Position numbers and translations under genes: made by a program. The notes under the pieces are model-generated. The model ran no database searches. It had not been told where the DNA came from and was given only the letters and a program-made list of their open reading frames with translations. DNA of 64,000 nucleotides from Escherichia coli (GTDB lineage Bacteria > Pseudomonadota > Gammaproteobacteria > Enterobacterales > Enterobacteriaceae). Positions 3,263 to 45,450 of the stretch are shown here, in pieces (the stretch's first letter is position 1; every line of letters begins with the position of its first letter). Location: the NCBI RefSeq assembly GCF_003991155.1, contig NZ_CP031293.1, one strand, 5' to 3'.

Positions 3263-3337
3263 TAACCTCCCGTGGAAAAGAGACGAGGTAATCGGGGAAC
3301 CGGATGAGCATCGCTGCATCATCCGGCAAATCAAGCC

Positions 3338-4117
3338 TTAGTAGCTGCTGGCGCTCTTACCGTCGCCGTGGCCCAGAGCCTTCAGCAGGCTTGCCAGCAG
3401 GCTGGAAGCACCAAAGCGGTAGTGACGCGCATCAGCCCAGTCAGCACCGAACAGTTCATCGGCGATGGAGAGATATTTCTGCGCATCTTCCGCAGTACGC
3501 ACGCCGCCCGCCGGTTTGAAACCAACGGTTTTTTCTACGCCCATATCGCGGATCACTTCCATCATGATGCGCGCGCTTTCCGGCGTCGCATTCACAGCCA
3601 CTTTACCGGTAGAGGTTTTGATGAAGTCAGCACCCGCTTTGATGGAGATTTCAGACGCTTTACGGATCAGCGCTTCGTCTTTCAGTTCTCCGGTTTCAAT
3701 AATCACTTTCAGCAGGACGTTCGCCGCAGCGCAAGCCTCTTTACAGGCTTTCACCAGGTCAAAACCAACCTGCTCGTTACCCGCCATCAGCGCGCGGTAC
3801 GGGAACACCACGTCAACTTCATCGGCACCGTAGGCGATTGCCGCACGGGTTTCTGCCAGCGCGATTTCGATGTCGTCGTTACCGTGTGGGAAGTTAGTTA
3901 CCGTAGCGATACGGATTTCCGGGGTGCCCTGCTCTTTCAGAGTTTTGCGAGCAATCGGGATAAAGCGAGGATAGATACAGATAGCGGCGGTATTGCCGAC
4001 CGGAGTTTTGGCCTGATGACACAGTGCGATCACTTTCTCATCGGTGTCGTCGTCATTCAGGGTGGTCAGGTCCATCAATTTCAGTGCACGCAGGCTGCTT
4101 GCTTTCAGATCAGTCAT
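3338..4117 (-). CDS. deoC: Deoxyribose-phosphate aldolase
   Basis: ORF 3338..4141; internal Met gives a 259-aa product [24 protein letters not shown]...; first gene of the deo operon. Confidence 0.92.
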
Positions 4118-6763: not shown

Positions 6764-6890
6764 GCCGGATACGGCCTACGGATCGGCATAAACTTGTAGG
6801 CATGATAAGACGCGTCAAGCGTCGCATCAGGCATTGTGCGCCAGCTGCCGGATGCGGCGTGAACGCCTTATCCGGCCTACGGCACGTTAA
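6764..6890. repeat. REP/BIME-type repetitive extragenic palindromes
   Basis: Repeated GCCGGATGCGGCGTGAACGCCTTATCCGGCCTAC-like units between convergent yjjW and yjjV. Confidence 0.7.
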
Positions 6891-14469: not shown

Positions 14470-14650
<181 letters not shown>

Positions 14651-14768: not shown

Positions 14769-14855
14769 GCGAAGGTGGCGGAATTGGTAGACGCGCTAGC
14801 TTCAGGTGTTAGTGTCCTTACGGACGTGGGGGTTCAAGTCCCCCCCCTCGCACCA
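14769..14855 (+). tRNA. leuV: tRNA-Leu (anticodon CAG), copy 1
   Basis: 87-nt sequence GCGAAGGTGGCGGAATTGGTAGACGCG...CTCGCACCA with encoded CCA and long variable arm; anticodon CAG at 14803..14805. Confidence 0.95.
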
Positions 14856-14883
14856 AAAACCACGTTGATATTGCTCGCACTGG

Positions 14884-14970
14884 GCGAAGGTGGCGGAATT
14901 GGTAGACGCGCTAGCTTCAGGTGTTAGTGTTCTTACGGACGTGGGGGTTCAAGTCCCCCCCCTCGCACCA
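14884..14970 (+). tRNA. leuP: tRNA-Leu (anticodon CAG), copy 2; one substitution (T at 14931) relative to copies 1 and 3
   Basis: 87-nt tandem copy, identical apart from the single variable-arm difference. Confidence 0.95.
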
Positions 14971-15004
14971 AACGAGGCGATATCAAAAAAAGTAAGATGA
15001 CTGT

Positions 15005-15091
15005 GCGAAGGTGGCGGAATTGGTAGACGCGCTAGCTTCAGGTGTTAGTGTCCTTACGGACGTGGGGGTTCAAGTCCCCCCCCTCGCACCA
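15005..15091 (+). tRNA. leuQ: tRNA-Leu (anticodon CAG), copy 3
   Basis: 87-nt tandem copy identical to copy 1. Confidence 0.95.
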
Positions 15092-27858: not shown

Positions 27859-29523
27859 TTAAAACGTTTCCCAGTTCTCCCCGCTATCTGCCACGGCCAT
27901 TTTACGCGGCGTAGCTGGCGTCACGGTTTTTACCACAGCCGATGTTTCACGCTGATGTTGCTGCTGTTGCTGAATCCGGAACACTGCCACAGCTTCGGTC
28001 AGGCGACTGGCCTGCTCTTCCAGCGCGGCAGCGGCGGCGGCAGATTCTTCCACCAGCGCGGCGTTCTGTTGAGTTACCCGGTCCATCTCAGCAACCGCTA
28101 ATCCAACCTGATCGATACCACGGCTCTGCTCATCAGAAGCAGAAGCAATTTCGCCCATAATGTCCGTCACGCGGGTCACGGCACTGACAATCTCTGCCAT
28201 GGTTTCCCCGGCGCTTTCGACCAGCGTAGAGCCAACATCTACTTTCCCCACCGAGTCTTCAATCAGGCTTTTAATTTCACGAGCCGCCTGAGCGCTGCGC
28301 TGGGCCAGATTACGCACTTCACCCGCGACCACCGCAAAACCGCGCCCTTGCTCACCCGCGCGCGCTGCTTCAACCGCCGCGTTCAAAGCGAGAATATTGG
28401 TCTGGAAGGCAATGCCGTCAATTACGCTGATAATATCGGCGATTTTCTGCGAACTGGTGGAGATATCGCGCATAGTCTGCACCACGTTATCTACCACTTT
28501 GCCGCCGCGTTGCGCCGTTTCAGAAGCACTTAACGCCAGGTGGCTGGCCTGGCGCGCATTTTCGGCGTTCTGCTTCACCGTTGCGGTCAGTTGCTCCATG
28601 CTGGCTGCCGTCTCTTCCAGCGAAGCGGCCTGTTGCTCGGTGCGCGAAGAGAGATCGTTATTGCCGGTAGCGATTTCGCTGGCACCGCTATAGATGGCAT
28701 TGGCCCCGTTGCGCACATCACCGACGGTACGCATCAGCTCTCCCTGCATATGGCGCAAACTCTCAGCCAGTTGCCCCATCTCATTAGAGCCATCCACCTC
28801 AATCGGTTTCACCAGATCGCCGCCTGCAATATGACGAATGCTGTCAATCAGGCGATTCATTGGCGCTACCAACGAGGCTTTAATACCGAACCAGACGGCG
28901 AAGATGACCGCCAGTACGACGATCATCACGCCCACCAGAATCCACATCGCCTGGCTGTAGGAGGCATTATTATCGCTGACGGCGATATCATAGAGCCGAT
29001 CGTTTTGCTCCATGTAAGCCACATACTGCTTCTCGAAACCGTCCTGATATCCCTGGGTCGGCTGATCAAAGAACTCGTTGATTTTGCCTGCACCTAACAG
29101 TTGGATCAGCTCCGCCAGCGCATTGTGATAAATATCGTAATTTCGTTTGATCTCTGCCGCTGCGGCGGTGCTCTGACGCGGGTCACGCGGCAACGCTTCG
29201 TAATCCGCCCAGTTTTTTTCCGCCTGTTTCAGCGAAATACTGGCACTCTGCATCAGCTCAGCAACGGTTGAACCGCTACCAATATTATTCTGATCCATCA
29301 TGTAGCGGATACCCGCGCGGTTGAGGGTGTTACGCGTCTGCAACAACGCGACCCAGCTGCCATTCAGCGTGGATTGCTGCTGGCGAATGGTTTGTAAAAC
29401 AGTGAAATTTTCTTTGTCATTCTTTAAGGCATTAAAGAACAGACCGCCTGATGTCAGTTGTAAAAGGCCAAAAACGGCCAAAACCAGCAGTAAGCTGGTC
29501 ACGATCTTGATACGTTTTAACAT
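27859..29523 (-). CDS. tsr: Methyl-accepting chemotaxis protein I (serine chemoreceptor)
   Basis: ORF 27859..29538; product from the internal start [19 protein letters not shown]... is 551 aa; HAMP and MCP signalling domains; C-terminal NWETF pentapeptide. Confidence 0.93.
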
Positions 29524-29554
29524 GGTTTCTCTTTCCACTAGACAGATACACTGG

Positions 29555-29581
29555 TTGTCGGCCTGGTGGTGGAAAACTTTA
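29555..29581 (-). promoter_or_regulatory. Sigma28 (FliA) promoter of tsr: TAAAGTTT-N11-GCCGACAA
   Basis: Reverse strand reads TAAAGTTTTCCACCACCAGGCCGACAA, a near-perfect match to the flagellar class 3 consensus TAAAGTTT-N11-GCCGATAA, about 30 bp upstream of the tsr start. Confidence 0.75.
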
Positions 29582-29662
29582 TGCTGTGGAAAAGCGTCGG
29601 CACTGCTTTTGTTGCAGCAAACTTGCGTTTTTTGTGAGGGTCACACTCTATAGCGGCAGTTT

Positions 29663-30568
29663 ATGGTACAAAGTATCAATCTTCTTCGAACCAGTGATAC
29701 TCCTATGGCTTATAGCATCGATATCATCTCCTGCATTACCGAACGGTTTATGGCGTTAACAGCCACTGAAAAGCGTATCGCACAATTTATTCTTGATGAC
29801 GTCTCTGCCGCAGTAGAGTTGCCAATTGCTGAGCTGGCACGGTTAACGCAAACCAGTCAGGCGTCGGTGACGCGTTTTGCCCGTGCACTGGGGTGCAAAG
29901 ATGTCCGCGAGTTGAAAGTCAAACTGGCGCAGTCACTGGCTGTCGGGCAGCGGTTTATTCTCGATGTACCGGATCTTGACGGTGTTCAGGGGATCTACGA
30001 AGCGATTATTAGCGTGCTGGAGACGCATCGTCGTTCGCTGGATATGAATGCCATCAGCCAGGCTGTAAGCTGGTTAAGTCAGGCGCGGCAAATTCTTGCG
30101 TTAGGAACTGGCGGCGGTTCCACTATCTGTTCACAGGAGATTCAGTACCGTTTATTCCGTCTGGGGCTACCGGTGGTCAGTCAGAATGATGCCCTGATGA
30201 TGAGAATGATGTGCTCGGCAGTCATGCCGCAGGATGTGGTGATTGTGCTTTCGCTGGGCGGTTATACACCGGAAATCATCGAAAGTGCGGCAATCGCCCG
30301 TCAGTATGGCGCGCGTGTTATTGCCATTACGCCAGCACAAACACCGCTGGCGGAACAGGTGGATCTGGTATTGCCGTTACTGGTTCAGGAAAGTGATTAC
30401 ATCTTTAAGCCCACCCCTTCCCGCTACGCGATGTTAGCCATGGTCGATGTACTGGCAACAGAACTGGCAATGGCAAATAAAGCGCAGGCGAAAGATCGCC
30501 TGCGGCGGATAAAACTCGTGTTAGACAGCCACCGTGGGGGCGCTAACCGCCAGCCACTTGGCGATTAG
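29663..30568 (+). CDS. RpiR/MurR-family transcriptional regulator (HTH plus SIS sugar-phosphate-binding domain)
   Basis: 301-aa ORF (start may be internal, about 29705); HTH region TEKRIAQFILDD...ELARLTQTSQASVTRFARALG; SIS-like motif LGTGGGS. Confidence 0.75.
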   Translation: MVQSINLLRTSDTPMAYSIDIISCITERFMALTATEKRIAQFILDDVSAAVELPIAELARLTQTSQASVTRFARALGCKDVRELKVKLAQSLAVGQRFILDVPDLDGVQGIYEAIISVLETHRRSLDMNAISQAVSWLSQARQILALGTGGGSTICSQEIQYRLFRLGLPVVSQNDALMMRMMCSAVMPQDVVIVLSLGGYTPEIIESAAIARQYGARVIAITPAQTPLAEQVDLVLPLLVQESDYIFKPTPSRYAMLAMVDVLATELAMANKAQAKDRLRRIKLVLDSHRGGANRQPLGD

Positions 30569-30577
30569 CATTGTCGG

Positions 30578-32047
30578 TTATGCTTCTTCAGGTTTGGTGA
30601 TCACGACACTCTGGTTTTCACGCTCATTGGTGATAATAGCCAAAGCTTCTTCCCGGCTGACCTGACTTGCTGGCGTTACCAACGTCACCAGTACGCCAGC
30701 GACCAGGCTGCCCAGCACTGACGGAATACACGGGTTACCCCAGTAAGCCAGCCAGTCGGCATTCATCAGCACCACAATTGACATCACCATACCGCTCACT
30801 AACGCCGCCAGCGCGCCCTGCCAGTTAAAGCGTAGCCAGAAGCGACCGAGAATCGAGCAGATAAACAGCCCGGACATCAGCATCGAAATCATTTTGGTAA
30901 TGTAGCTGATGATGTCATTAGAGGTCAGAGCAAAGACCAGCGCCAGGCCAATAACAAAGGTCAACATCCAGCGTGAGTAAGTAATGGCCTTGTCCTCCGG
31001 CGGCATTCTGCCGGTAATCATGGTGTAGACGTCGCGCATCATAATCGCCACCGCCGCGATGGCATCGGAGCTGGCAGAAGACATGGTGGCTGAAAGCCCG
31101 GCAATCAGCACCACCAGCCCAAGAATGGCAGGTAAGAAACTGGTCGCGAACAAGAAGGCGTAGTTGCTGTTTTCCAGATTTGGGTTCATGGTGAACGCCG
31201 CCATGCCGATAATGGCAGGCAAAATCGAGAAGAACAGATATAACACCCCAGTAATAACAAACGAACGGCGTACAGAGGGAACATCTTTACCCGAGTAAAT
31301 ACGCTGGCGATAAGACGGTGTGGCCAGTACGCCGACACCAATAACCAGCGCCAGCGAAAGCGCAGGTAGAACGCCCATTTTATCAATCGCAAACAGGCTC
31401 ATCGCTTTTGGGTCCATCGCCTGTTCAATCGCACTCCAGCCGCCAACGTGAACAACGGCGAGAATAGCCATCAATATAAAGCCAAAGAACAGAATTAAGG
31501 CCTGAATGGTGTCTGTCCACACTACCGCCGAATAACCGCCGATAATAACGTAAATCGCAAAAGCTAAGGCGATAATTAATTTTGCTACAGTAAGATCAAT
31601 ACCTGTTGCCCAGGCAAGATACATACTGCCACCTAATATATGCGCCCCCAGCCAGCCAATAGAGGCAATAAATATCATCAGGCCGACAATATTTTTAATT
31701 AAATGACTCCCGCCAGTATAATAAGATATTTCTTCACTCATGGTCATAAAACGTAATTTACGTACCGGTGCAAACAGCCACGCCACCAGTAATATACCTA
31801 CGGCCCCACCGACGCCATAAAGCATTCCGGCCCAGCCATTGCTGTAGCCAAAGCCCACGGCGCCCATACTGGAACCCGTGCCAACCATCGTGGCAACGGT
31901 TGAGCCCAGCGTCAGAAACAGCGGCAACGAACGCCCGCCCAGCAGAAAATCTTCTCCGCTTTTCTGATTACGAGACACAAACCAACCAAGCCAAATCATG
32001 GCGATGGCATAAATAATAAAGCCGACTAAAAAGATATGACTGTTCAT
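30578..32047 (-). CDS. Sodium:solute symporter (SSS) family transporter
   Basis: 489 aa, highly hydrophobic, SSS-like N-terminus (GGRSLPLFLTLGSTVATMVGTGSSMG). Confidence 0.75.
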   Translation of the reverse strand: MNSHIFLVGFIIYAIAMIWLGWFVSRNQKSGEDFLLGGRSLPLFLTLGSTVATMVGTGSSMGAVGFGYSNGWAGMLYGVGGAVGILLVAWLFAPVRKLRFMTMSEEISYYTGGSHLIKNIVGLMIFIASIGWLGAHILGGSMYLAWATGIDLTVAKLIIALAFAIYVIIGGYSAVVWTDTIQALILFFGFILMAILAVVHVGGWSAIEQAMDPKAMSLFAIDKMGVLPALSLALVIGVGVLATPSYRQRIYSGKDVPSVRRSFVITGVLYLFFSILPAIIGMAAFTMNPNLENSNYAFLFATSFLPAILGLVVLIAGLSATMSSASSDAIAAVAIMMRDVYTMITGRMPPEDKAITYSRWMLTFVIGLALVFALTSNDIISYITKMISMLMSGLFICSILGRFWLRFNWQGALAALVSGMVMSIVVLMNADWLAYWGNPCIPSVLGSLVAGVLVTLVTPASQVSREEALAIITNERENQSVVITKPEEA

Positions 32048-32149
32048 AATTCACATCCTGCCAGTAGAGAGAGAATAAAGTAAGAGTTCCCGGAGTGCTG
32101 AATGTATTCAGCACTCAATTGCGGTCTATTTTTTTAATTCTTAAATTTA

Positions 32150-32539
32150 TTAGCGGGTCGCGTTATAACAGGTCACATCGACTTCAACTTTACAATCGAC
32201 AACCAGATCAGCTACACAACAAATACGTGCAGGCGGATTCTCGCCAAAAAATTCTCTGAATACTTTATTAAATGACTGGAAATAGCGGGCGTCGGTCAGG
32301 ATCACTTTCACGTGAACCACATCCGCCAGGCTATAACCGGCTTCAGTCATGATGTCGACACAGTTTTGGATCGCCAGTCGTGACTGTTCAACGATACCGC
32401 CTTCTACCACTTCACCGTTTTTCATGGGGGTTTGCCCGGAGACGTACAGCCAGCCGCCCGCCTCAACCGCCCTGGCAAACGGCAAATGCTGCCCGCCAGT
32501 GCCTGTTCCACCTTCCGTACCGTAACGTTTAATACTCAT
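32150..32539 (-). CDS. RidA/YjgF-family reactive-intermediate (enamine/imine) deaminase
   Basis: About 129 aa; pattern ...VSGQTP...AGYSLADVVHVKVILTD...PAR... typical of RidA family. Confidence 0.7.
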   Translation of the reverse strand: MSIKRYGTEGGTGTGGQHLPFARAVEAGGWLYVSGQTPMKNGEVVEGGIVEQSRLAIQNCVDIMTEAGYSLADVVHVKVILTDARYFQSFNKVFREFFGENPPARICCVADLVVDCKVEVDVTCYNATR

Positions 32540-32548
32540 ATTCACTCC

Positions 32549-34000
32549 TTAATGTGAGGTCTGGCGGCGCAGGAAGCGTCCCGCACGGCCTGTAATATGT
32601 TTATCGGGACCATAGCTCATAACGCCGTTCACCATCACCGCCTCAATGCCATCTGCCGGGCGTTTGGGATCAGAAAAGCTGGCAACATCACGAATGGTTT
32701 GTGGATCGAACAACACCAGGTCCGCAAAATAGCCGACTTTCACCAGCCCACGCTGAGGCAGACGAAAACGGCTGGCAGAAAGCCCGGTCATTTTGTGGAT
32801 AGCCGTGGTCAGTGGGAATAAGCCTTCATCACGGCAATAGTGACCCAGCACGCGAGGGAAAGCGCCCCATAAACGCGGATGCGGCATGGGATCATTGGGC
32901 AGTCCGTCAGAGCCAATCATACTGACCGGATAACTCAACACTCGGCGGACGTCGCGCTCGTCCATGTTGTAATAGATAGCCCCGGCAGGCATCAGCAACT
33001 TCGCGGCCTCCAGCATACTCATCTGCCAGTCGATGGCGATTTGCGCCAGTGTTTTCCCGGCCTGCTGCGGATGTGTTTGTGACCAGGTGATCACAATATC
33101 GAATTCGTCGGTGACTTGTTTGAGATCCAGCGTTGAAGAGCTGGCTGAGTAAGGGTAGACATCGCAGCCAATTTCCTGGTGTTGACGCATTTGGTCAAAA
33201 AAGGCCAACGTTTCTTTTGTCCGCCCCCAGTTTTTCGCCCCGGCGCATTTATGGTGGGAAACCACGACAGGCACTTTGCCATGACGCCCAATACGAAACG
33301 CCTCATCCAGGGCATCGAGAATCGGTTCAAATTCAGAACGCAGATGGGTGGTATAAACGCCCTTCTCACCGGCTAATTCTTCCGCCAGCGCCATGACTTC
33401 TTCGGTAGTCGCCTGAAATGCCGTTGCATAGGCCAGCCCGGAACTTAACCCCAGCGCCCCCTGACTCAACGCCAGACGTAAGTCGGCACGCATAGCGGCA
33501 ATTTCATCCACCGTCGCCGGGCGAAACAGGTCGTCCATATGGTTATTACGCAGCGCCGTATGACCAATCAGCGTGCCAACGTTCAGTGACGGCCTGGCTG
33601 CTTCCACTGCCTGGGCATAGCTTTCAACGGTAGGATAAATAAAGTGCTCTGCTTCCCCCAACAGATTCATCGGGTCAGGAACTTCACCTTTCATTTTCGC
33701 CGACGCCGCACTAATCCCGCAGTTACCGACAATCACCGTAGTGATCCCCTGGCTGATCTTTGGCAGATATTCCGGGATGCGAATAACGTTGATATCGTCA
33801 TGGGTATGAACGTCGATAAACCCTGGTGCCAGCACCCGCCCTTCCCCGTCAATGACCTGCTGCGCCGTAACGTTAAGCGCAGGGGCAATATCGACAATCC
33901 GATCACCTGTTATTGCCACGTCACCGCGAAATTCAGGGCCGCCGCTACCGTCGATAACGGTCACATTTTTGATTAACCAGTCAACCTGCATGTTCGTCAC
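32549..34000 (-). CDS. N-acyl-D-amino-acid deacylase (D-aminoacylase), amidohydrolase superfamily
   Basis: 483 aa; N-terminal IKNVTVIDGSG...APGFIDVHTHDD metal-binding motif characteristic of D-aminoacylases. Confidence 0.75.
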   Translation of the reverse strand: MTNMQVDWLIKNVTVIDGSGGPEFRGDVAITGDRIVDIAPALNVTAQQVIDGEGRVLAPGFIDVHTHDDINVIRIPEYLPKISQGITTVIVGNCGISAASAKMKGEVPDPMNLLGEAEHFIYPTVESYAQAVEAARPSLNVGTLIGHTALRNNHMDDLFRPATVDEIAAMRADLRLALSQGALGLSSGLAYATAFQATTEEVMALAEELAGEKGVYTTHLRSEFEPILDALDEAFRIGRHGKVPVVVSHHKCAGAKNWGRTKETLAFFDQMRQHQEIGCDVYPYSASSSTLDLKQVTDEFDIVITWSQTHPQQAGKTLAQIAIDWQMSMLEAAKLLMPAGAIYYNMDERDVRRVLSYPVSMIGSDGLPNDPMPHPRLWGAFPRVLGHYCRDEGLFPLTTAIHKMTGLSASRFRLPQRGLVKVGYFADLVLFDPQTIRDVASFSDPKRPADGIEAVMVNGVMSYGPDKHITGRAGRFLRRQTSH

Positions 34001-34191
34001 TCCATTTCTGCAATGGTGACAAGTTAACCATTTACAAGGACGAAAAACAGTGGAAAACTACGCAAAACCCAGATGATTTTATGATACTTTTATTCATAAA
34101 TAATAAGATAAATAAACTAAATATTTATATTTCATTTAGTTACAAATGATACTCACATCCGATACGGTGAAAAACTTAAAAGGTAAATGTT

Positions 34192-35412
34192 ATGAAATAC
34201 CACTCAGAACCTCTGGTTCCCCATAAATCTGCCCTGATGCAAATGCCCGCAAATCTCCTTGCCGAAGATGTCTGTTTACCTGCCGCGATCATTAAAAAGC
34301 AGGCCCTGGAGAACAACATTACGTGGATGCAACGCTACGCTGACGCGCGCGGCGTTTCACTGGCACCGCACGGTAAAACCACCATGACGCCGTGGATTTT
34401 TCAGGCGCAGCAGGCGGCTGGTGCCTGGGCAATAGGTGTCGGTAGCGCATGGCAGGCTGGTGCGGCAATGGCGAGCGGTATTCAGCGAGTGCTGATGGTT
34501 AACCAGCTGGTCGGCAAGGCGAATATGCAGTTGATTGCCCAGTTGCAACGACATTACCCGACGGTCGATTTTATCTGCTGTATCGACAGCATTGAGAACG
34601 CCCGCGCTTTGTCTGCCTTTTTTGCCAGTCAGCAACAGACACTGAACGTGATGATTGAGTTGGGTGTCCCCGGCGGGCGCTGTGGTTGCCGCTCAAGGGA
34701 TGCCGCACTGACACTGGCTAAACAGGCAGCCCAATTACCGGGGTTACGCCTGCGGGGGCTTGAGTTATATGAAGGCGTTTTACACGGTGACGCTCCACAA
34801 CCGCAGGTAGAAGCTCTGCTGCGGGATGCCGCACAACTGGCCTGTGATATGGCAAGTCTGGTTGATGGCGAGTTTATTCTCACCGGAGCAGGCACGGTCT
34901 GGTATGACGTGGTGTGCAATATCTGGCTGGCGGCAGAAAAGCCTGATAACTGCCGCATTGTTATTCGCCCTGGCTGCTACATCACTCACGACACCGGGAT
35001 CTACGACGCGGCACAACAACAGTTGCTTGCCCGTGATCCTGTGGCCTGCGATCTGGCAGGCGATCTCACATCTGCGCTGGAACTGGTCGCCATGGTGCAA
35101 TCGGTGCCGGAAGCTGATCGTGCGGTGGTAAATTTTGGTAAGCGTGATTGCGCCTTCGACGCCGGACTGCCGCAACCAGTCGCCCACTACCGCAACGGCA
35201 AATCACTGGCATTTGATCCACAGGCGATTCGCAGTACAGGTATTATGGATCAGCACTGCATGTTGCAACTGTCAGCTAATAGCGACGTGCAAGTGGGGGA
35301 TATTCTGGTGTTTGGCACATCGCATCCGTGCCTGACCTTCGACAAATGGAAAACGTTGTTATTGACTGATGACGACTACAACGTACTGGCAGAATTAGAC
35401 ACTCTCTTCTAA
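34192..35412 (+). CDS. DSD1-family PLP-dependent enzyme (alanine-racemase-fold D-serine dehydratase / D-threonine aldolase-like)
   Basis: 406 aa; putative PLP-lysine motif LAPHGKTTM near the N-terminus; divergent from the deacylase gene. Confidence 0.65.
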   Translation: MKYHSEPLVPHKSALMQMPANLLAEDVCLPAAIIKKQALENNITWMQRYADARGVSLAPHGKTTMTPWIFQAQQAAGAWAIGVGSAWQAGAAMASGIQRVLMVNQLVGKANMQLIAQLQRHYPTVDFICCIDSIENARALSAFFASQQQTLNVMIELGVPGGRCGCRSRDAALTLAKQAAQLPGLRLRGLELYEGVLHGDAPQPQVEALLRDAAQLACDMASLVDGEFILTGAGTVWYDVVCNIWLAAEKPDNCRIVIRPGCYITHDTGIYDAAQQQLLARDPVACDLAGDLTSALELVAMVQSVPEADRAVVNFGKRDCAFDAGLPQPVAHYRNGKSLAFDPQAIRSTGIMDQHCMLQLSANSDVQVGDILVFGTSHPCLTFDKWKTLLLTDDDYNVLAELDTLF

Positions 35413-35536
35413 GAACGCCCCTTCGGTTAATTATCGAAGGGGCATTTTTATTGTGATCTCAATCACATATCCACCCGACGAATAATTCTTGCCCAACCGC
35501 TCACCGCCATTCCTGACCGCTTACATCCCTAAAATA

Positions 35537-35559
35537 ACCACTCAGTTATTTACCTTACT
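35537..35559. promoter_or_regulatory. Possible BtsR (YehT) direct-repeat binding site upstream of btsT
   Basis: ACCACTCA ... ACCTTACT direct-repeat-like motifs about 130 bp upstream of btsT; weak match, from memory of the ACC(G/A)CT(C/T)A motif. Confidence 0.3.
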
Positions 35560-35679
35560 TTACGCGCGCGTAACTCTGGCAACATCACTGCAGGATAGCG
35601 GTCAATTTACCTCCTCAAACGCAACGCAAACCTAGAACGGCTTCGGCCAACTATTAATCAATACATGCCAGGTTTTACT

Positions 35680-37830
35680 ATGGATACTAAAAAGATATTC
35701 AAGCACATACCCTGGGTGATTCTCGGAATCATCGGTGCATTCTGCCTCGCGGTAGTTGCATTACGTCGGGGGGAGCACGTCAGTGCCCTGTGGATCGTGG
35801 TCGCCTCTGTGTCGGTGTATCTGGTGGCTTATCGCTACTACAGTCTGTACATCGCCCAGAAGGTGATGAAACTCGACCCCACGCGCGCGACGCCTGCGGT
35901 TATTAACAACGACGGTCTGAACTATGTTCCGACCAACCGTTACGTGTTGTTTGGTCACCACTTCGCCGCTATCGCCGGTGCTGGTCCGCTGGTTGGTCCG
36001 GTTCTCGCCGCGCAGATGGGCTACCTGCCTGGCACGCTGTGGCTGCTGGCGGGGGTAGTGCTGGCCGGTGCGGTACAGGACTTTATGGTGCTGTTTATCT
36101 CCTCTCGCCGTAACGGCGCATCTCTCGGTGAGATGATCAAAGAAGAGATGGGACCAGTACCGGGGACTATCGCGCTGTTTGGCTGTTTCTTAATCATGAT
36201 CATCATCCTTGCCGTCCTGGCGCTGATTGTGGTTAAAGCCCTGGCCGAAAGTCCGTGGGGTGTCTTCACCGTTTGCTCAACCGTACCGATTGCGCTGTTT
36301 ATGGGTATCTACATGCGCTTTATTCGTCCGGGGCGTGTGGGTGAAGTCTCTGTCATTGGTATCGTGCTGCTGGTTGCCTCTATCTACTTCGGTGGCGTGA
36401 TTGCTCACGATCCGTACTGGGGTCCGGCACTGACCTTTAAAGACACCACCATTACCTTCGCGCTGATTGGCTATGCGTTTGTTTCCGCACTGCTGCCAGT
36501 GTGGCTGATCCTCGCACCGCGCGACTATCTGGCAACCTTCCTGAAAATCGGCGTTATCGTCGGCCTGGCGCTGGGTATCGTGGTGTTGAACCCGGAACTG
36601 AAAATGCCTGCGATGACCCAGTACATTGACGGTACTGGCCCGCTGTGGAAAGGCGCTCTGTTCCCGTTCCTGTTCATCACCATCGCCTGTGGTGCGGTAT
36701 CTGGCTTCCACGCGCTGATCTCTTCCGGTACGACGCCGAAACTGCTGGCTAACGAAACCGACGCGCGTTTCATCGGCTACGGCGCAATGCTGATGGAATC
36801 CTTCGTGGCGATTATGGCGCTGGTTGCTGCGTCCATCATCGAACCGGGTCTTTACTTCGCGATGAACACCCCGCCTGCTGGCCTTGGCATCACCATGCCT
36901 AACCTGCATGAAATGGGTGGCGAGAACGCGCCGATCATCATGGCGCAGCTGAAAGACGTTACCGCACACGCGGCAGCGACCGTCAGCTCCTGGGGCTTCG
37001 TGATTTCGCCAGAGCAGATCCTGCAAACCGCGAAAGACATTGGTGAGCCTTCTGTCCTGAACCGTGCAGGTGGTGCGCCGACGCTGGCGGTAGGTATCGC
37101 TCACGTGTTCCACAAAGTGCTGCCGATGGCTGACATGGGCTTCTGGTATCACTTCGGTATTCTGTTCGAAGCCCTGTTCATCCTGACCGCGCTGGATGCG
37201 GGTACCCGTTCTGGTCGCTTTATGCTTCAAGACCTGCTGGGTAACTTCATCCCGTTCCTGAAAAAAACCGACTCTCTGGTTGCCGGTATCATCGGTACTG
37301 CGGGCTGTGTGGGTCTGTGGGGCTACCTGCTGTATCAGGGCGTGGTCGATCCGCTGGGCGGCGTTAAGAGCCTGTGGCCGCTGTTCGGTATCTCCAACCA
37401 GATGCTGGCAGCCGTAGCGCTGGTACTGGGCACCGTTGTGCTGATTAAGATGAAGCGCACCCAATACATCTGGGTAACTGTTGTTCCGGCTGTATGGCTG
37501 CTTATCTGCACCACCTGGGCGCTGGGCCTGAAACTGTTCAGCACCAACCCGCAGATGGAAGGCTTCTTCTACATGGCAAGCCAGTACAAAGAGAAGATTG
37601 CTAACGGTACTGACCTGACGGCACAGCAGATTGCCAACATGAACCACATCGTTGTGAACAACTACACCAACGCAGGTCTGAGTATTCTGTTCCTGATTGT
37701 GGTGTACAGCATCATCTTCTACGGTTTCAAAACCTGGCTGAAGGTGCGTAACAGCGACAAACGTACTGACAAAGAAACTCCGTACGTTCCAATCCCGGAA
37801 GGCGGCGTGAAGATCTCTTCGCACCACTAA
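35680..37830 (+). CDS. btsT: Pyruvate/H+ symporter BtsT (CstA family)
   Basis: ORF 35665..37830; large polytopic CstA-like membrane protein; probable start MDTKKIFKHIPW. Confidence 0.9.
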   Translation: MDTKKIFKHIPWVILGIIGAFCLAVVALRRGEHVSALWIVVASVSVYLVAYRYYSLYIAQKVMKLDPTRATPAVINNDGLNYVPTNRYVLFGHHFAAIAGAGPLVGPVLAAQMGYLPGTLWLLAGVVLAGAVQDFMVLFISSRRNGASLGEMIKEEMGPVPGTIALFGCFLIMIIILAVLALIVVKALAESPWGVFTVCSTVPIALFMGIYMRFIRPGRVGEVSVIGIVLLVASIYFGGVIAHDPYWGPALTFKDTTITFALIGYAFVSALLPVWLILAPRDYLATFLKIGVIVGLALGIVVLNPELKMPAMTQYIDGTGPLWKGALFPFLFITIACGAVSGFHALISSGTTPKLLANETDARFIGYGAMLMESFVAIMALVAASIIEPGLYFAMNTPPAGLGITMPNLHEMGGENAPIIMAQLKDVTAHAAATVSSWGFVISPEQILQTAKDIGEPSVLNRAGGAPTLAVGIAHVFHKVLPMADMGFWYHFGILFEALFILTALDAGTRSGRFMLQDLLGNFIPFLKKTDSLVAGIIGTAGCVGLWGYLLYQGVVDPLGGVKSLWPLFGISNQMLAAVALVLGTVVLIKMKRTQYIWVTVVPAVWLLICTTWALGLKLFSTNPQMEGFFYMASQYKEKIANGTDLTAQQIANMNHIVVNNYTNAGLSILFLIVVYSIIFYGFKTWLKVRNSDKRTDKETPYVPIPEGGVKISSHH

Positions 37831-39061: not shown

Positions 39062-39092
39062 GGCCGCCATGTGGCGGCCTGAATTATTTTTT
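39062..39092. terminator. Bidirectional hairpin terminator between convergent yjiA and brnA
   Basis: Inverted repeat GGCCGCCA/TGGCGGCC followed by a T-run (TGAATTATTTTTT). Confidence 0.6.
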
Positions 39093-39386
39093 GTTCTGAT
39101 CGCGCAGCATCGCTTCACGTAAAATTGCGTTCAGGCGAGTTTGATAGCCTTTACCTGGTCGCTTCAACCATTCCATCACATCAGAATCAATACGCACCGA
39201 GGCCTGAGTTTTCAATGGCCGATAAAACTTACCGCGTTCTGCGTTAGACCATTGCTCATCGCTGGAAGGTGGGATATCACTGTAATCAATATCTTCGTCG
39301 GATTTATTCGCCAGCGCCTTCAGTTCGGCCTCATGCTGCACATCGAGTGTAGAGGAGGTCCCTCGTTTATGTTTAACCATGCTCAT
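39084..39386 (-). CDS. brnA: BrnA-like antitoxin (COG3514 / DUF4415 family)
   Basis: About 100 aa from an internal ATG of ORF 39084..39527; motifs IDYSDIP and VRIDSDVMEWLKRPGKGYQTRLNAILREAM typical of BrnA; start overlaps the upstream toxin gene. Confidence 0.75.
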   Translation of the reverse strand: MSMVKHKRGTSSTLDVQHEAELKALANKSDEDIDYSDIPPSSDEQWSNAERGKFYRPLKTQASVRIDSDVMEWLKRPGKGYQTRLNAILREAMLRDQNKK

Positions 39387-39687
39387 AGCGATTCCTCTCT
39401 TTACGATCTGCTTTTCGTGCACTGATGATTCGAATAATTTCATTTCCGCTTTCGAAACGGATGGTATGCGCAACCAGAATAACCACGATGCCGTAAACCA
39501 GGCCGATTGTCTGCCAGCGATACTCACCGTTTTCTATGCGTTCTTGCTGTGACAAATGTTGTGGATCATCAAACACTAACACCGCATCTTCAAAGCGGAT
39601 GCCATGTTTCACCCGATTACTTTTGGCCTTGTTTGCATCCCATTCAAACTCCATTGGCATAGTTGCCATCCCTAATTGTATATACAA
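39373..39687 (-). CDS. brnT: BrnT-like toxin (COG2929 ribonuclease, RelE-like fold)
   Basis: 104-aa ORF (true start may be internal); motifs EFEWDANKAKSNRVKHGIRFEDAVLVFDDP and IRIISARKA typical of BrnT; toxin-first order with 14-nt overlap onto brnA. Confidence 0.75.
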   Translation of the reverse strand: MYIQLGMATMPMEFEWDANKAKSNRVKHGIRFEDAVLVFDDPQHLSQQERIENGEYRWQTIGLVYGIVVILVAHTIRFESGNEIIRIISARKADRKERNRYEHG

Positions 39688-39856
39688 AAATGTATCTACA
39701 ATTATTCTGCAATTATAGCGTTGATGTTGGAAATAGCATCACGTTTTGGATAATCAACCATGAAATTGACAATGAGTGAGTTGGACTTGATTCATCCAAT
39801 AGAATTTCTCGCCTGACATGGCACACTAAACACCTCGCTGTCGTTAAGGGATTACC

Positions 39857-41023
39857 GTGAAAAACTACAAAGTCATTACCCCGCTTTTTCCTACCTATGC
39901 GCAAGTTAAGGCTATGATGAAAGCCGTCTCAGGCTATTCCCTGAAAGCGGTGCGCAATATGATTACTGCCATTCACGAGCAAACCGGTACGCCGCAAAAA
40001 CCCGTTGACTGGTCAGAACCCGACCTGTGGATCAGCGAGCGCTTAACGGGTGAAGATGCCGACATCGCCCGTCGTATTTGGGATACCGATAATCACATCT
40101 TGAACCCGCGCCACAGCTACGGCTGCTACTTATTCCTCAACTATCCCCAGTTTGAGCTGATGGAAAGCACACCAGATGATATCTGGCAGCCCACCTCGCG
40201 CGGGCAAAAATTCCTGCAAGATGACGAAAAAACGCTGCGTTCACTGGACGACCAGGAAGGCATTCTGCAACTGCTTGAGCTGCTGGCTGGCCGGGAAATG
40301 TCGCGCCGCGCCGATTTATTGCCGGAATGGCAGGCCTTTTTGCATCAGCATTCGAAATTCGCGTCAGCAAGTTCAGTGAAAAGCACGCTCTACTCCCGTC
40401 TCTATAACCTTATCGACCGTGACATGGTTAACCGTGAAGGCATGAGCTATCGCATCACCGATACCGGGCGCGCCTGGCTTGGAAAAGCGTTGCCAGCACG
40501 AAAAAGCGATCCGCGTAAAGAGCTGTTGGAAGCGGTAAAACGCTATAACGAACAGCAAAAAGAGCTGCTGCGCGAACAAATCAGCACGATGAACCCGTAC
40601 AAATTTGAGCAACTGGTTGGTCAATTACTGGAAGCAATGGGCTACGAGCAGGTCGAAGTGACCAAAGCCTCAGGCGACAAAGGTGTGGACGTGATTGGTC
40701 AGGTGCAGGTCGGCATCACCACTATTACCGAAGTGGTGCAGGTCAAAAGAATGCAGAACACTATCACTCGCCCGTATATCGACCAGTTGCGCGGGGCGTT
40801 GCCTTACCACAAAGCCATTCGCGGTACGCTCATCACCACCGGGAAATTTGCGGCGAAATGTGCAGAAGCGGCGCTCTTTCCGGGTGCCGCGCCCATTACG
40901 CTTATCGACGGCGATCGTTTACTGGAACTGTTAATCGAAAATAACGTCGGCATTCGCCGCAGCAATGCAGTGGAATTGCTGGATGTGGATTTGCAGTTGT
41001 TTGATGAGCTGGAGATGGATTAA
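39857..41023 (+). CDS. Mrr-family (type IV-like) restriction endonuclease with extended N-terminal region
   Basis: 388 aa with GTG start; C-terminal Mrr catalytic-like core (NPYKFEQLVGQLLEAMGY...SGDKGVDVIG...EVVQVKR) and an Mrr-like C-terminal tail; N-terminal half about 80 aa longer than K-12 Mrr (304 aa, from memory). Confidence 0.7.
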   Translation: MKNYKVITPLFPTYAQVKAMMKAVSGYSLKAVRNMITAIHEQTGTPQKPVDWSEPDLWISERLTGEDADIARRIWDTDNHILNPRHSYGCYLFLNYPQFELMESTPDDIWQPTSRGQKFLQDDEKTLRSLDDQEGILQLLELLAGREMSRRADLLPEWQAFLHQHSKFASASSVKSTLYSRLYNLIDRDMVNREGMSYRITDTGRAWLGKALPARKSDPRKELLEAVKRYNEQQKELLREQISTMNPYKFEQLVGQLLEAMGYEQVEVTKASGDKGVDVIGQVQVGITTITEVVQVKRMQNTITRPYIDQLRGALPYHKAIRGTLITTGKFAAKCAEAALFPGAAPITLIDGDRLLELLIENNVGIRRSNAVELLDVDLQLFDELEMD

Positions 41024-41067
41024 AGGGCGAAATCTGCCGCCTCTACCATTACAATACGGAGTTCATC

Positions 41068-41244
41068 GTGGTCAAAGCACCAACTAAAAAAGCCAAAGCA
41101 AAGAAAAGCTCTGAAGAAACATTATGTGATACCACAAACCAATTTCGTGGTAGCGTTGAGTCCTCCGAATACAAGCACGTGGTGTTAAGCCTCGTGCTCC
41201 AGAAACTCATCAGCGATAAGTTTGAAGCACGCCGCAAAAAATGA
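41068..41244 (+). pseudogene. Type I R-M methyltransferase HsdM N-terminal fragment (about 58 codons, then stop)
   Basis: GTG start with GGAG RBS; translation ...LCDTTNQFRGSVESSEYKHVVLSLVLQKLISDKFEARRKK* resembles the HsdM N-terminal domain; ends at TGA within an A6 tract. Confidence 0.5.
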
Positions 41245-41903
41245 TTGCCGAAGCGTTAAAAGCTGATGGGATGGAAGAAATTTATTTTTCTGGCGACAAA
41301 AAAGCGGAATCTATCGATATTTTTGACGAAGATTATCTGGCGCGAATTAACAAGATCAAACTTCCAGCAACGAAGATCCTGTTATTACAAAAATTACTGG
41401 AAAAAGCGATCAGCGAGTTCAGGAAAGTGAACCAGTTGCAAGGGATTAACTTCACCCGCCGCTTCCAGGCGATTATAGATCGTTATAATGAGCGGCGAGA
41501 AGATGATGTACTCAACGGTGAAGAATTCGATACATTCAGTCAGGAAATGATTGATATTATCTATGATATTAAAACCGAAATGGGCACCTGGGCCGATTTA
41601 GGCATTGATATTGAAGAAAAAGCCTTTTTCGACATTCTTGCTCATATGCGCGATAAATATCAGTTCACCTATGACGATGAAAAAATGCTGTCACTGGCAA
41701 AAGAGATGAAAAGCGTTGTTGACAACACATCGAAATATCCTGACTGGAGTAAACGCGATGATATTAAAGCGAAACTGAAAGTTGAACTTATTCTGCTTCT
41801 ACACAAGCATAAGTTCCCGCCAGTAGCGAATGATGATGTTTATATGGGTGTGCTGGCACAGGCAGAGAATTTTAAAGAACATCATATGAGTGCTTTAAAT
41901 TAA
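41241..41903 (+). pseudogene. Type I restriction enzyme HsdR C-terminal fragment (DUF3387-like)
   Basis: 220-aa ORF starting at the ATGA overlap with the upstream fragment; motifs LGIDIEEKAFFDIL and ...LLLHKHKFPP... resemble the HsdR C-terminal domain as I recall it; no helicase/nuclease core present. Confidence 0.5.
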
Positions 41904-41910
41904 TTATGAA

Positions 41911-41936
41911 GGCCGGATACACTTTGTTATCCGGCC
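41911..41936 (+). terminator. Stem-loop (possible terminator) after the hsdR remnant
   Basis: 9-bp perfect inverted repeat GGCCGGATA/TATCCGGCC with 8-nt loop; no strong T-run. Confidence 0.4.
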
Positions 41937-42022
41937 ATTCTGAATTAACGTTAATTTCTCTTCCAGATCTTTCCAGTAACGCTTTTATTATTTTCTATTT
42001 TTAGCTGGACTTTCCCTGTATT

Positions 42023-42042
42023 TACTGATGATATATCCAGGT
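42023..42042. promoter_or_regulatory. LexA (SOS) box in the symE promoter: TACTGATGATATATCCAGGT
   Basis: CTG-N10-CAG with AT-rich centre, about 75 bp upstream of the symE start codon. Confidence 0.7.
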
Positions 42043-42059
42043 ATTTAGCGCGGTGCGAA

Positions 42060-42136
42060 TGTGCGCCAACACACCCGCACCGCTCATCACAATCCCTATT
42101 TCACGAGAATAGTAATCATGACTGACACGCATTCTA
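42060..42136 (-). ncRNA. symR: Probable SymR antisense sRNA (antitoxin of SymE), approximate coordinates
   Basis: Inferred from the known cis-antisense arrangement over the symE RBS and start codon; boundaries not determined from sequence. Confidence 0.35.
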
Positions 42137-42456
42137 TTGCACAACCGTTCGAAGCAGAAGTCTCCCCGGCAAATAACCGTCAATTAACCGTGAGTTATGC
42201 GAGCCGCTACCCGGATTACAGCCGTATTCCCGCCATCACCCTGAAAGGTCAGTGGCTGGAAACCGCCGGTTTTGCTACCGGCACGGCGGTAGATGTCAAA
42301 GTGATGGAAGGCTGTATTGTCCTCACCGCCCAACCACCCGCCGCCGAAGAGAGCGAACTGATGCAGTCACTGCGCCAGGTGTGCAAGCTGTCGGCGCGTA
42401 AACAAAGGCAGGTGCAGGATTTTATTGGGGTGATTAGTAGCAAAACGCCACGCTAA
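42118..42456 (+). CDS. symE: SOS-induced toxin SymE (AbrB-fold RNA-cleaving protein)
   Basis: ORF 42061..42456; product [48 protein letters not shown]... matches SymE. Confidence 0.88.
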
Positions 42457-44493: not shown

Positions 44494-45450
44494 TTAGTAC
44501 TCGATCCATGGATCGCGCTTGCTTTCAGGCAAGGGCTGATCTAATGCCTGCATTTGCTCTGCCGAAAGTCCGGTATATCGTTGTATCCATTCAGGATCCG
44601 CCCCATTCTGCAACAACAATCGGAGGAGGCTCTTTTCCCCTTCTTCTTTCCCTTCTTTCCTCCCCCTCTCCCTTCCCAACAGCCATCCATCATTATGAAT
44701 TCGCTCTGCAATCGTCATTATTCGCTCCCTGTGTTGTGGCATTCGACGGATAAGTTCGCTGATAAACTCATTAAAACGCGCTTCATCGCCAGTCAGTAAA
44801 ATGTAATTTAACAGCGCGGTTATCTGGCTGTCATTAGCGCACCCTGTAACCAGTAATACTGCCAGTTGATCAATAAGCCCCATTAGATCGCGCTGGCGAA
44901 TATGCTTTTGGATCAACTCCAGCAGGGCGACTCTGCGATGCTGCACAATCTCGTCGTCTGGCACGACAGTGACATCCACCAGCGGGAACGCTGCGGTATA
45001 AAGCTTCCGTGCGGTAGCCGGGTCGGCAAATTCATCCAGCCAGCACAAAGACCAGGGGTAAGGACTACGGCTACCGTGATAAAACAGCATCGGGATGACC
45101 AGCGGTAGCGGCCGGCGTTTATCATGCTCGATATGGCGCTGCATCACCGCCATGGAATATCGCATCAGGCGAAAGGCCATATGGATATCCTCGCGGCTCT
45201 GATGTTCAATCACCACATAAATATAGCCATCTCCTTCGCGGGTCTTTACCGACCACAGAATATCGGAATGTAGCGCCCGCAATTTTTCATCGACAAAGCT
45301 GGCGTATTCCAGTTTTAAGCTGTCGAGATCGCACAGTTCACGTAAATCTTTGGGTAAGTGGATCTCCATAAAATCCCGCGCGGTGTCAGGGTGGGTGAGA
45401 AAAGATTTAAATAATGCGTCATGCGGCGTGCTGGTCGTGAAGTTTGTCAT
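44494..45450 (-). CDS. rpnD: Rpn-family recombination-promoting nuclease (PD-(D/E)XK, transposase_31-like); intact ORF
   Basis: 318 aa; N-terminal HDALFKSFL motif typical of Rpn/YhgA-like proteins; E/G/K-rich low-complexity C-terminal linker. Confidence 0.75.

Follow-up and report, generated by a model that had tools for sequence, protein, structure and literature searches.

In Escherichia coli K-12, the serine chemoreceptor gene tsr and the pyruvate/H+ symporter gene btsT are divergent neighbors, and in the K-12 derivative HST04 the spacer between them measures 377 bp. In the E. coli chromosomal stretch analyzed here (contig NZ_CP031293.1; 64,000 nucleotides, referred to at its full length as the window), the same two genes are held apart by close to 6 kb of additional DNA that codes for five proteins, and the locus raises the question of what these proteins do and how their genes came to lie in this position. 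The original prediction described the segment as a five-gene island inserted between two promoters, and was correct both in regarding tsr and btsT as adjacent in K-12 and in its estimate of the extra length. The interpretation favored here, to which we attach a probability of roughly 0.78, is that the segment represents a reduced version of the ong cluster, which serves the catabolism of N-acetyl-D-glucosaminic acid (GlcNAc1A), and that it has long resided in the tsr-btsT gap of Enterobacteriaceae and would have been exchanged among members of Escherichia by homologous recombination in the conserved flanking DNA, without the participation of a mobile element.

All coordinates are those of the window, with gene boundaries taken from the Prokaryotic Genome Annotation Pipeline (PGAP) annotation of the 100%-identical chromosome of E. 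coli 2016C-3878 (NZ_CP029747.1). Both blastn comparison with the K-12 empty site and alignment of the junctions place the end of K-12 homology at position 29583 and its resumption at 35497; 5,913 bp thus stand where K-12 has 135 bp of unrelated sequence, which indicates replacement rather than clean insertion. The left break falls 2 nt upstream of a sigma-28-type promoter of tsr, and the right break directly upstream of the conserved btsT leader:

27859 to 29523, minus strand: tsr, serine chemoreceptor, the left flanking core gene (NCBIfam equivalog PRK15041, 1225 bits against a cutoff of 947; PGAP).
29555 to 29581, minus strand: sigma-28-type promoter of tsr, TAAAGTTT-N11-GCCGACAA, read on the reverse complement.
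29584 to 35496, no strand: the variable segment, delimited by blastn against the K-12 empty site and by junction alignments.
35680 to 37830, plus strand: btsT, pyruvate/H+ symporter, the right flanking core gene (PGAP; NCBIfam CstA-family match).

Both the promoter and the region upstream of btsT are retained at the edges of the segment, as had been proposed; its right edge, earlier set at 35664, requires correction, since the annotated start of btsT is 35680 and not 35665. Five intact, full-length open reading frames (ORFs) are found between tsr and btsT, and NCBIfam, Pfam and PDB sequence matches back the five families to which they had been assigned. They are listed below under the names of their ong counterparts, for reasons given in the following paragraphs:

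29705 to 30568, plus strand: ongR, a MurR/RpiR regulator with HTH_6 and SIS domains, predicted repressor (best NCBIfam match HexR, below cutoff).
30578 to 32047, minus strand: ongIT, a sodium:solute symporter (SSS), predicted GlcNAc1A importer (NCBIfam SSS superfamily).
32150 to 32539, minus strand: ongD, RidA family, predicted enamine/imine deaminase acting on the OngC product (Rid family).
32549 to 33991, minus strand: ongB, predicted GlcNAc1A deacetylase, a subtype V amidohydrolase of D-aminoacylase fold (match to the P. prydzensis enzyme described below).
34192 to 35412, plus strand: ongC, a DSD1-like, fold-type III enzyme dependent on pyridoxal phosphate (PLP), predicted D-glucosaminate ammonia-lyase yielding 2-keto-3-deoxygluconate (KDG) (PF01168 and PF14031).

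GlcNAc1A is the C1-oxidized sugar acid that lytic polysaccharide monooxygenases (LPMOs) leave at the ends of chitin fragments. In Pseudoalteromonas prydzensis ACAM 620, its use depends on an ong cluster of eight genes (Jiang et al. 2022, Nat Commun, PMC9537276): ongOT-1, encoding a TonB-dependent receptor; ongR, an RpiR-family repressor; ongIT, an SSS importer; kdgK; ongA, a GH20 hexosaminidase; ongB, the GlcNAc1A deacetylase that acts as the first catabolic enzyme; ongC, a PLP-dependent deaminase forming KDG and ammonia from D-glucosaminate; and ongD, of the RidA family. Experiments in that species have demonstrated the pathway, the essentiality of each gene, repression by OngR and the role of the SSS transporter (PMC9537276). 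When the E. coli proteins are compared over their full lengths with those of a Pseudoalteromonas strain that has an OngB 92% identical to that of P. prydzensis (PpOngB), identities of 44% for OngR, 58% for OngIT (473 aa), 84% for OngD, 54% for OngB and 45% for OngC are obtained, the latter over 386 aligned residues (E = 3e-118); the best PDB match of OngC is 3GWQ (E = 1.6e-106).

The most specific evidence for this assignment is provided by OngB, which is 54% identical to PpOngB itself (PDB 9KB1; E = 6e-167) and approximately 87% identical to 9G5M, an amidohydrolase family protein from Klebsiella, and which matches both of these structures far better than it does classical D-aminoacylases. The residues of PpOngB that bind GlcNAc1A, as well as those that part it from D-aminoacylases, have been defined (Wang et al. 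2025, JBC, PMC12017989). Seventeen of the 18 metal, catalytic and substrate residues are kept in the E. coli protein, including the Cys/His/His metal site, the catalytic Asp, Ser292, Gln298, Ser290, Ala193 and Ala256 (PpOngB numbering), and the one change replaces Gly348 by Asn. An OngB-type pocket, defined here by Ser292, Gln298, Ser290, Glu226 and small residues at positions 193, 256 and 348, is therefore recognized, while the hydrophobic or charged D-aminoacylase pocket (Thr; Leu or Arg; Phe, Met and Met) is absent, E. coli OngB displaying Ser286, Gln292, Ala187, Ala250 and Asn342.

A fold-type III PLP deaminase of OngC type is divergently adjacent to ongB, and a RidA-family OngD, an SSS-family OngIT and an RpiR-family OngR are encoded in the same cluster. 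No kinase gene is located between tsr and btsT, kdgK being found in 5,421 of 5,426 E. coli genomes. The components that would extend the cluster to a full oxidative chitin pathway, namely an AA10 LPMO, OngOT and OngA, are found neither in the cluster nor elsewhere in the 64-kb window. At the level of sequence, the cluster thus has the composition expected of a GlcNAc1A catabolic core, and the five genes are the known ong set rather than a generic D-amino-acid module. In Supplementary Data 3 of the 2022 study, 13 E. coli strains are entered as ong-positive, together with E. fergusonii ECD227 and one Escherichia sp.; each has precisely this set of five genes and lacks lpmo, ongOT-1, kdgK and ongA (PMC9537276), so that the identity of the cluster was already known. 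A literature search by RefSeq protein accession returned nothing on the E. coli proteins, and we found no paper in which the E. coli ong genes were tested or their chromosomal position treated; what is new in this work is the history of the locus, the conserved blocks of its control region, and the recognition of the Klebsiella 'D-acylase' discussed below as an OngB orthologue.

By homology with the marine system, we infer a route in E. coli in which OngIT, as a Na+/solute symporter, would import GlcNAc1A and possibly free D-glucosaminate too, with OngB deacetylating the former to the latter. OngC would then eliminate water and ammonia from D-glucosaminate, generating KDG, and OngD would hydrolyze the reactive enamine or imine intermediate. 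The kinase missing from the cluster could be supplied by KdgK of the core genome, which together with Eda, also encoded by a core E. coli gene, would lead from KDG to pyruvate and glyceraldehyde-3-phosphate. OngR, a predicted repressor of RpiR/SIS type, would repress the divergent ongB-ongD-ongIT and ongC units unless a sugar acid or phosphosugar of the pathway builds up. Since neither an LPMO nor an outer-membrane receptor nor a hexosaminidase accompanies these genes, E. coli could use only free monomer released by other organisms.

The distribution of the cluster within the species was followed in a scan of 5,426 complete E. coli genomes, in which a carrier was defined by the presence of at least 80% of the segment. 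There are 193 carriers (3.6%), in all of which the copy is chromosomal, in addition to one genome with a decayed copy. They include MRY15-131, of sequence type (ST) 457, whose segment is 100% identical to that of the window, and APEC O2-211, of ST117 (sequence types were taken from published papers); many of the carriers listed are poultry isolates. Since K-12 and about 96% of complete genomes lack the cluster, its description as accessory rather than core stands. The gap is not necessarily empty in the remaining strains: in 2,066 of the 5,426 genomes (38%), hpaC abuts btsT and the hpa cluster fills it, while in the other genomes sampled tsr and btsT are directly adjacent, as in K-12. Thirty-five ong carriers also harbor a nine-gene module of hydroxyproline type between ongC and btsT (as in E272, L007:15088-25118; also L008:1-8531), which is present in Escherichia sp. 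E1V33 too and whose Ldh-family gene, the part probed, was never seen without ong. This module encodes a 4-hydroxyproline epimerase, FAD and 2Fe-2S oxidoreductases, an enzyme resembling dihydrodipicolinate synthase, an aldehyde dehydrogenase, an APC permease, an Ldh-family oxidoreductase and an AraC regulator. In E. coli 2009C-3378, a lone gene for a hypothetical protein of 180 aa occupies the gap (L005:1853-2395).

Copies in decay are also observed. An internal stop interrupts ongIT in E272, and in HH45 (L065:5938-8282) ongB is truncated and ongC frameshifted, while ongR, ongIT and ongD are gone; at its junction, a tsr leader of K-12 type and 11 nt of K-12-specific spacer are joined to the interior of ongB (window position 33125) through an 8-bp microhomology, ATCCAGCG. 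Among E. coli carriers, the segment diverges by 0-2.5% and the flanking core genes by 0.1-3.6%. OngIT, OngR and OngB nevertheless keep one RefSeq protein accession each in strains that are up to 2.4% apart in the DNA of those genes (2.1-2.4% for ongIT between strains sharing one accession), and the identity of the proteins despite diverged DNA points to purifying selection.

Outside of E. coli, a scan of one genome per species revealed the same cluster, with the same gene order, in about 50 species of Enterobacterales. The gap between tsr and btsT is its location in Pluralibacter, and also in an enterobacterial contig that carries the label Chryseobacterium sp. 18061; it adjoins tsr and lgoT in Leclercia and lgoT in the K. 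oxytoca group (K. michiganensis, K. oxytoca, K. grimontii and K. spallanzanii); in K. pneumoniae, hpaR and an Ldh-family gene adjoin ongC. In Escherichia sp. E1V33 the cluster stands beside tsr, together with the hydroxyproline module, and the E. fergusonii locus reads hpa, hpaR, ongC, ongB-ongD-ongIT, ongR, tsr. OngR is 77-86% identical to its enterobacterial orthologues in conserved synteny. The spacer between ongC and btsT in the window has a homologue in the Chryseobacterium-labelled contig, down to a CRP-like site described below, which indicates that the arrangement is old and not a fresh scar.

Within the genus, DNA identity between E. coli and E. fergusonii is 97.1-98.5% for the ong genes and 80.8% for the adjacent tsr; between E. 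coli and E1V33, the corresponding values are 90-99% for ong, 88% for tsr and 83% for lgoT. The closest copies outside of Escherichia encode an OngB that is just 78-86% identical, so that no recent outside donor is visible. Loss of the cluster, together with its exchange by recombination between Escherichia species, fits these observations better than insertion. Two versions of the last 19 nt of ongC (window 35393-35412) exist, one in the window and the other in E272, E1V33 and E. fergusonii, which encode the same peptide, AELDTLF, with eight synonymous differences; ends recoded in this manner indicate a recombination breakpoint inside the gene. Formation of the right junction of the window by a simple deletion of hpa from a composite locus resembling that of E. 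fergusonii was considered and set aside, the end of ongC being recoded rather than truncated and the adjacent spacer being homologous to that of another genus. It was also considered whether the 135-bp K-12 spacer is a remnant of the segment, of hpa, of the hydroxyproline module or of loci from other genera; local alignment scores of 18-23, against 13-20 for shuffled sequences, are at or barely above chance, and the K-12 filler is thus not demonstrable as a remnant. Two further observations concern the transporter gene in other genera: OngIT falls into two classes of divergence with respect to E. coli (73-76% and 81-90% identity) that cross genus lines (75% in K. michiganensis, 89% in K. oxytoca and K. 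grimontii), and several loci of Kluyvera, Cedecea and Buttiauxella are devoid of ongIT. This suggests that the transporter gene has been replaced.

Several points weigh against the interpretation favored here. The locus provides no LPMO, no means of chitin-oligomer uptake and no ongA, and a natural source of the substrate in the gut has to be assumed. Except for OngD (84%), the proteins from which we infer substrate and regulation are only 44-58% identical to those of E. coli. Even in P. prydzensis, OngD is essential but its biochemical role was not established, and OngC deaminates D-Ser and D-Thr as well as its sugar-acid substrate (PMC9537276). In most enterobacterial clusters, an aldolase of the 2-keto-3-deoxy-6-phosphogluconate (KDPG) or 2-keto-3-deoxy-6-phosphogalactonate (KDPGal) type and an ORF of about 290 aa, which has no NCBIfam match but is listed as a sugar kinase in the 2022 paper (PMC9537276), are encoded between ongIT and ongR. 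The presence of the aldolase favors a 2-keto-3-deoxy sugar acid over an amino-acid-derived 2-oxo acid as the product of the pathway, yet the enzyme scores best against the 2-dehydro-3-deoxy-6-phosphogalactonate aldolase model, so that the sugar may have another configuration in enterics. As for the history of the locus, the fact that ong is closer than tsr between E. coli and E. fergusonii indicates that horizontal exchange does occur. Lastly, the Klebsiella protein of PDB entry 9G5M (KleDacyl, from K. pneumoniae) has been published as a D-acylase active on N-acetyl-D-Met, -Phe and -Trp (PMC12149444).

The latter activity would fit a different function, in which N-acetyl-D-Ser, N-acetyl-D-Thr or similar compounds would be imported, deacylated by the amidohydrolase and deaminated by the DSD1-type enzyme to a 2-oxo acid, with RidA clearing the imine. 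The activity in vitro of a protein approximately 87% identical to OngB, and the deamination of D-Ser and D-Thr by P. prydzensis OngC, both speak for such an N-acyl-D-amino-acid module, which we nonetheless hold to be unlikely. KleDacyl acts on N-acetyl-D-Met with a Km of 32 mM and a kcat of 90.5 per minute, and the substrates listed for its specificity are N-acetyl amino acids throughout, with GlcNAc1A not among them and OngB not mentioned (PMC12149444); PpOngB displays a Km of 9.8 mM and a kcat of 15.4 per second on GlcNAc1A, and its D-acylase activity is undetectable (PMC12017989). The kinetics of KleDacyl being weak in comparison, its D-acylase activity looks like a side activity. Moreover, KleDacyl is 99.6% identical to the ongB product of the ong cluster of K. 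pneumoniae ATCC 13883 (L047:3761-5200), where the gene is located between ongC and ongD, and the literature is thus inconsistent, in that the Klebsiella 'D-acylase' crystallized in 2025 is the ongB of a Klebsiella ong cluster. The pocket of E. coli OngB is of OngB type (at 292 it has Ser where D-aminoacylases have Thr, at 298 Gln where they have Leu or Arg, and small side chains occupy the positions of their Phe and Met), the regulator belongs to the RpiR/SIS type and is closest to HexR, the transporter is an orthologue of OngIT, and the aldolase and adjacent ORF of most enterobacterial clusters would be of no use to an amino-acid pathway. A quite different view would regard the genes as a non-functional remnant heading for deletion, deprived of LPMO, outer-membrane receptor, hexosaminidase and kinase of its own; only five of the eight genes of the model cluster are present, 96% of E. 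coli either lost the cluster or never had it, and E272 and HH45 provide examples of decay. This seems highly improbable given that all five ORFs are intact in the window, that proteins are identical across strains with DNA up to 2.4% apart, that blocks of the control region are conserved across genera, that kdgK is a core gene, and that Pseudescherichia, Franconibacter, Izhakiella and Shimwellia have likewise retained a cluster of just these five genes.

With regard to origin, a recent foreign genomic island, placed between the two promoters by a site-specific or illegitimate event, would be in keeping with the rarity of the cluster (3.6% of complete genomes), with its absence from K-12, and with the movement of DNA between species that the comparison with E. 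fergusonii implies. Very little probability remains for such an event once the segment itself is inspected. No integrase or insertion sequence (IS) is found among its genes and no tRNA gene at its junctions, and a search for direct and inverted repeats at both ends returned none longer than 6 nt, below the shuffled controls; in these respects, the lack of integrase, IS and direct repeats remarked upon in the original prediction is borne out. The G+C content of the segment is 51.5%, that of the window is 51.3%, and G+C at third codon positions is likewise native. The marks by which a mobile genomic island is recognized (integrase, recombinase or IS, tRNA gene or att-type repeats, atypical composition) are thus all lacking. 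The same position and gene order recur in several other genera, the right-hand spacer is homologous across genera, diversity among carriers about equals that of the flanking core genes, intermediates with deletions and pseudogenes exist, and an OngB at 78-86% as the closest outside of Escherichia offers no recent donor. Of the island that had been described, the accessory segment therefore stands and its 'insertion' does not, in view of the same locus in other genera, the native G+C content, the homologous ongC-btsT spacer and the decayed copies.

The following elements were identified in the non-coding sequences of the segment and at its edges:

29524 to 29583, minus strand: leader and promoter of tsr, in the haplotype that accompanies the ong cluster, from leader alignments.
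32094 to 32116, minus strand: stem-loop with a perfect 9-bp stem and a 6-nt loop, GAGTGCTGA-ATGTAT-TCAGCACTC, read in the 102-nt ongD-ongIT spacer.
33992 to 34191, no strand: divergent control region of ongB and ongC (200 bp), from multi-genus alignment.
35417 to 35453, plus strand: strong hairpin resembling an intrinsic terminator, after ongC (11 pairs, 35417..35443) followed by a T-run, from a consensus scan and an inverted-repeat search.
35452 to 35467, no strand: candidate CRP-like site upstream of btsT, TGTGATCTCAATCACA, read from sequence.

The alignment of the spacer between ongB and ongC from 18 enterobacterial species reveals three blocks that are invariant or nearly so (34021-34038, 34043-34067 and 34082-34096), while the remainder is unconserved; these blocks are candidate promoter or OngR-operator elements. 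The block at 34043-34067 is unique in the window, and the two best-conserved blocks do not recur above chance elsewhere in it. A palindromic OngR operator was sought in three intergenic regions, which yielded just A+T-rich imperfect repeats and the ongC terminator. The stem-loop between ongD and ongIT could act in intercistronic processing or stability. When the entire window was scanned with Rfam, no known RNA family was identified within the segment.

At the left edge, the sigma-28-type promoter, which matches 15 of 16 positions of the sigma-28 consensus, is kept in all locus variants and genera aligned. The leader in which it is embedded is 100% identical within carriers and only 75-77% identical to that of K-12-type and empty-site strains. 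A single leader haplotype is found in all non-carriers aligned, those of hpa type included, and Escherichia sp. E1V33 has the haplotype of the carriers. The two haplotypes have identical -35 elements and -10 elements that are one base apart (GCCGACAA and GCCGAAAA). At the right edge, an identical copy of the CRP-like site is present at the same place in the Chryseobacterium sp. 18061-labelled contig, and a variant, TGTGATATGAATCACA, in K-12. In E. coli E62, which is of hpa type, an insertion of about 115 bp is located just upstream of the btsT start codon (L003, about 3245-3360); with the series GTGAATCCCC..GGAGCTTACA..AGTAAGTGAC..GGGGTGAACG, it resembles an ERIC/IRU repeat.

Elsewhere in the window, the 'immigration control' region by yjiA (39084-42456) has been remodelled, and includes a BrnT/BrnA toxin-antitoxin pair, a stand-alone restriction endonuclease, fragments of hsdM and hsdR, and symE with its SymR antisense RNA (Rfam match at 42047-42123), an intact hsd/mrr set as in K-12 not being present there. 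Two naRNA4 (CssrE) REP-type elements, three tandem tRNA-Leu genes and the gene for an Rpn-family recombination-promoting nuclease (6799-6877, 14547-14629, 14769-15088 and 44494-45450) appear ordinary for this chromosomal region.

What the cluster might bring to its carriers can be addressed only tentatively. One rather doubtful proposal is that lineages of the ST457 and ST117 type use the monomer core to scavenge GlcNAc1A or D-glucosaminate, with a sub-variant in which enterobacterial OngB would be bifunctional, as deacetylase and D-acylase; the substrate, on an equally speculative note, might come from LPMO-bearing microbes or from oxidized dietary chitin of insects or fungi. If true, scavenging would provide carrier E. 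coli with a private source of carbon and nitrogen in the gut, and a bifunctional OngB would allow the cluster to detoxify or use N-acetyl-D-amino acids as well.

The comparison with known systems places the E. coli cluster among several relatives. It shares five homologous proteins and 17 of 18 OngB residues with P. prydzensis, which in addition has ongOT-1, ongA and an in-cluster kdgK; none of these is part of the E. coli cluster, for which no lpmo is listed either. The operons differ too, since ongC of E. coli stands alone, divergent from ongB-ongD-ongIT, with ongR convergent at the far end, whereas P. prydzensis has ongCRBD and ongIT-kdgK-ongA, and the hosts are a gut bacterium in one case and a marine chitin degrader in the other. 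With classical D-aminoacylases, OngB has in common the fold, the Cys/His/His site, the catalytic Asp and the residues that anchor the acetamido and carboxylate groups; its pocket differs in that Ser takes the place of Thr, Gln that of Leu or Arg, and Ala that of the Phe and Met of those enzymes. In published assays, D-aminoacylases are inactive on GlcNAc1A and PpOngB is inactive on N-acetyl-D-amino acids (PMC12017989).

The ong clusters of other Enterobacterales (Klebsiella, Raoultella, Leclercia, Pluralibacter, Buttiauxella, Kluyvera, Cedecea and others) have the same gene order and orientation as that of E. coli, with identities of 72-96%; the position between tsr (or lgoT) and btsT is shared in some genera, and the blocks of the ongB/ongC spacer are conserved. 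Most of them carry the aldolase and the ORF of about 290 aa in addition, and some are without ongIT. The dga system of Salmonella likewise feeds D-glucosaminate into the KDPG/Entner-Doudoroff route, but employs a phosphotransferase system (PTS) transporter, a phosphorylated intermediate and an unrelated ammonia-lyase; no genes homologous to these are present in the tsr-btsT segment. The hpa (4-hydroxyphenylacetate) cluster, which older literature describes in E. coli B, C and W but not in K-12, encodes an unrelated pathway and is far commoner than ong in E. coli, but occupies the same tsr-btsT gap, with the same bounds at the tsr promoter edge and upstream of btsT, and is similarly a catabolic module that some strains have and others lack, free of mobility genes; in E. 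fergusonii and Klebsiella, hpa and ong lie side by side. The tsr-btsT gap is a modular catabolic locus, in which hpa, hydroxyproline and ong modules occur in varying combinations and different E. coli lineages retain different ones, rather than the target of an unknown insertion mechanism.

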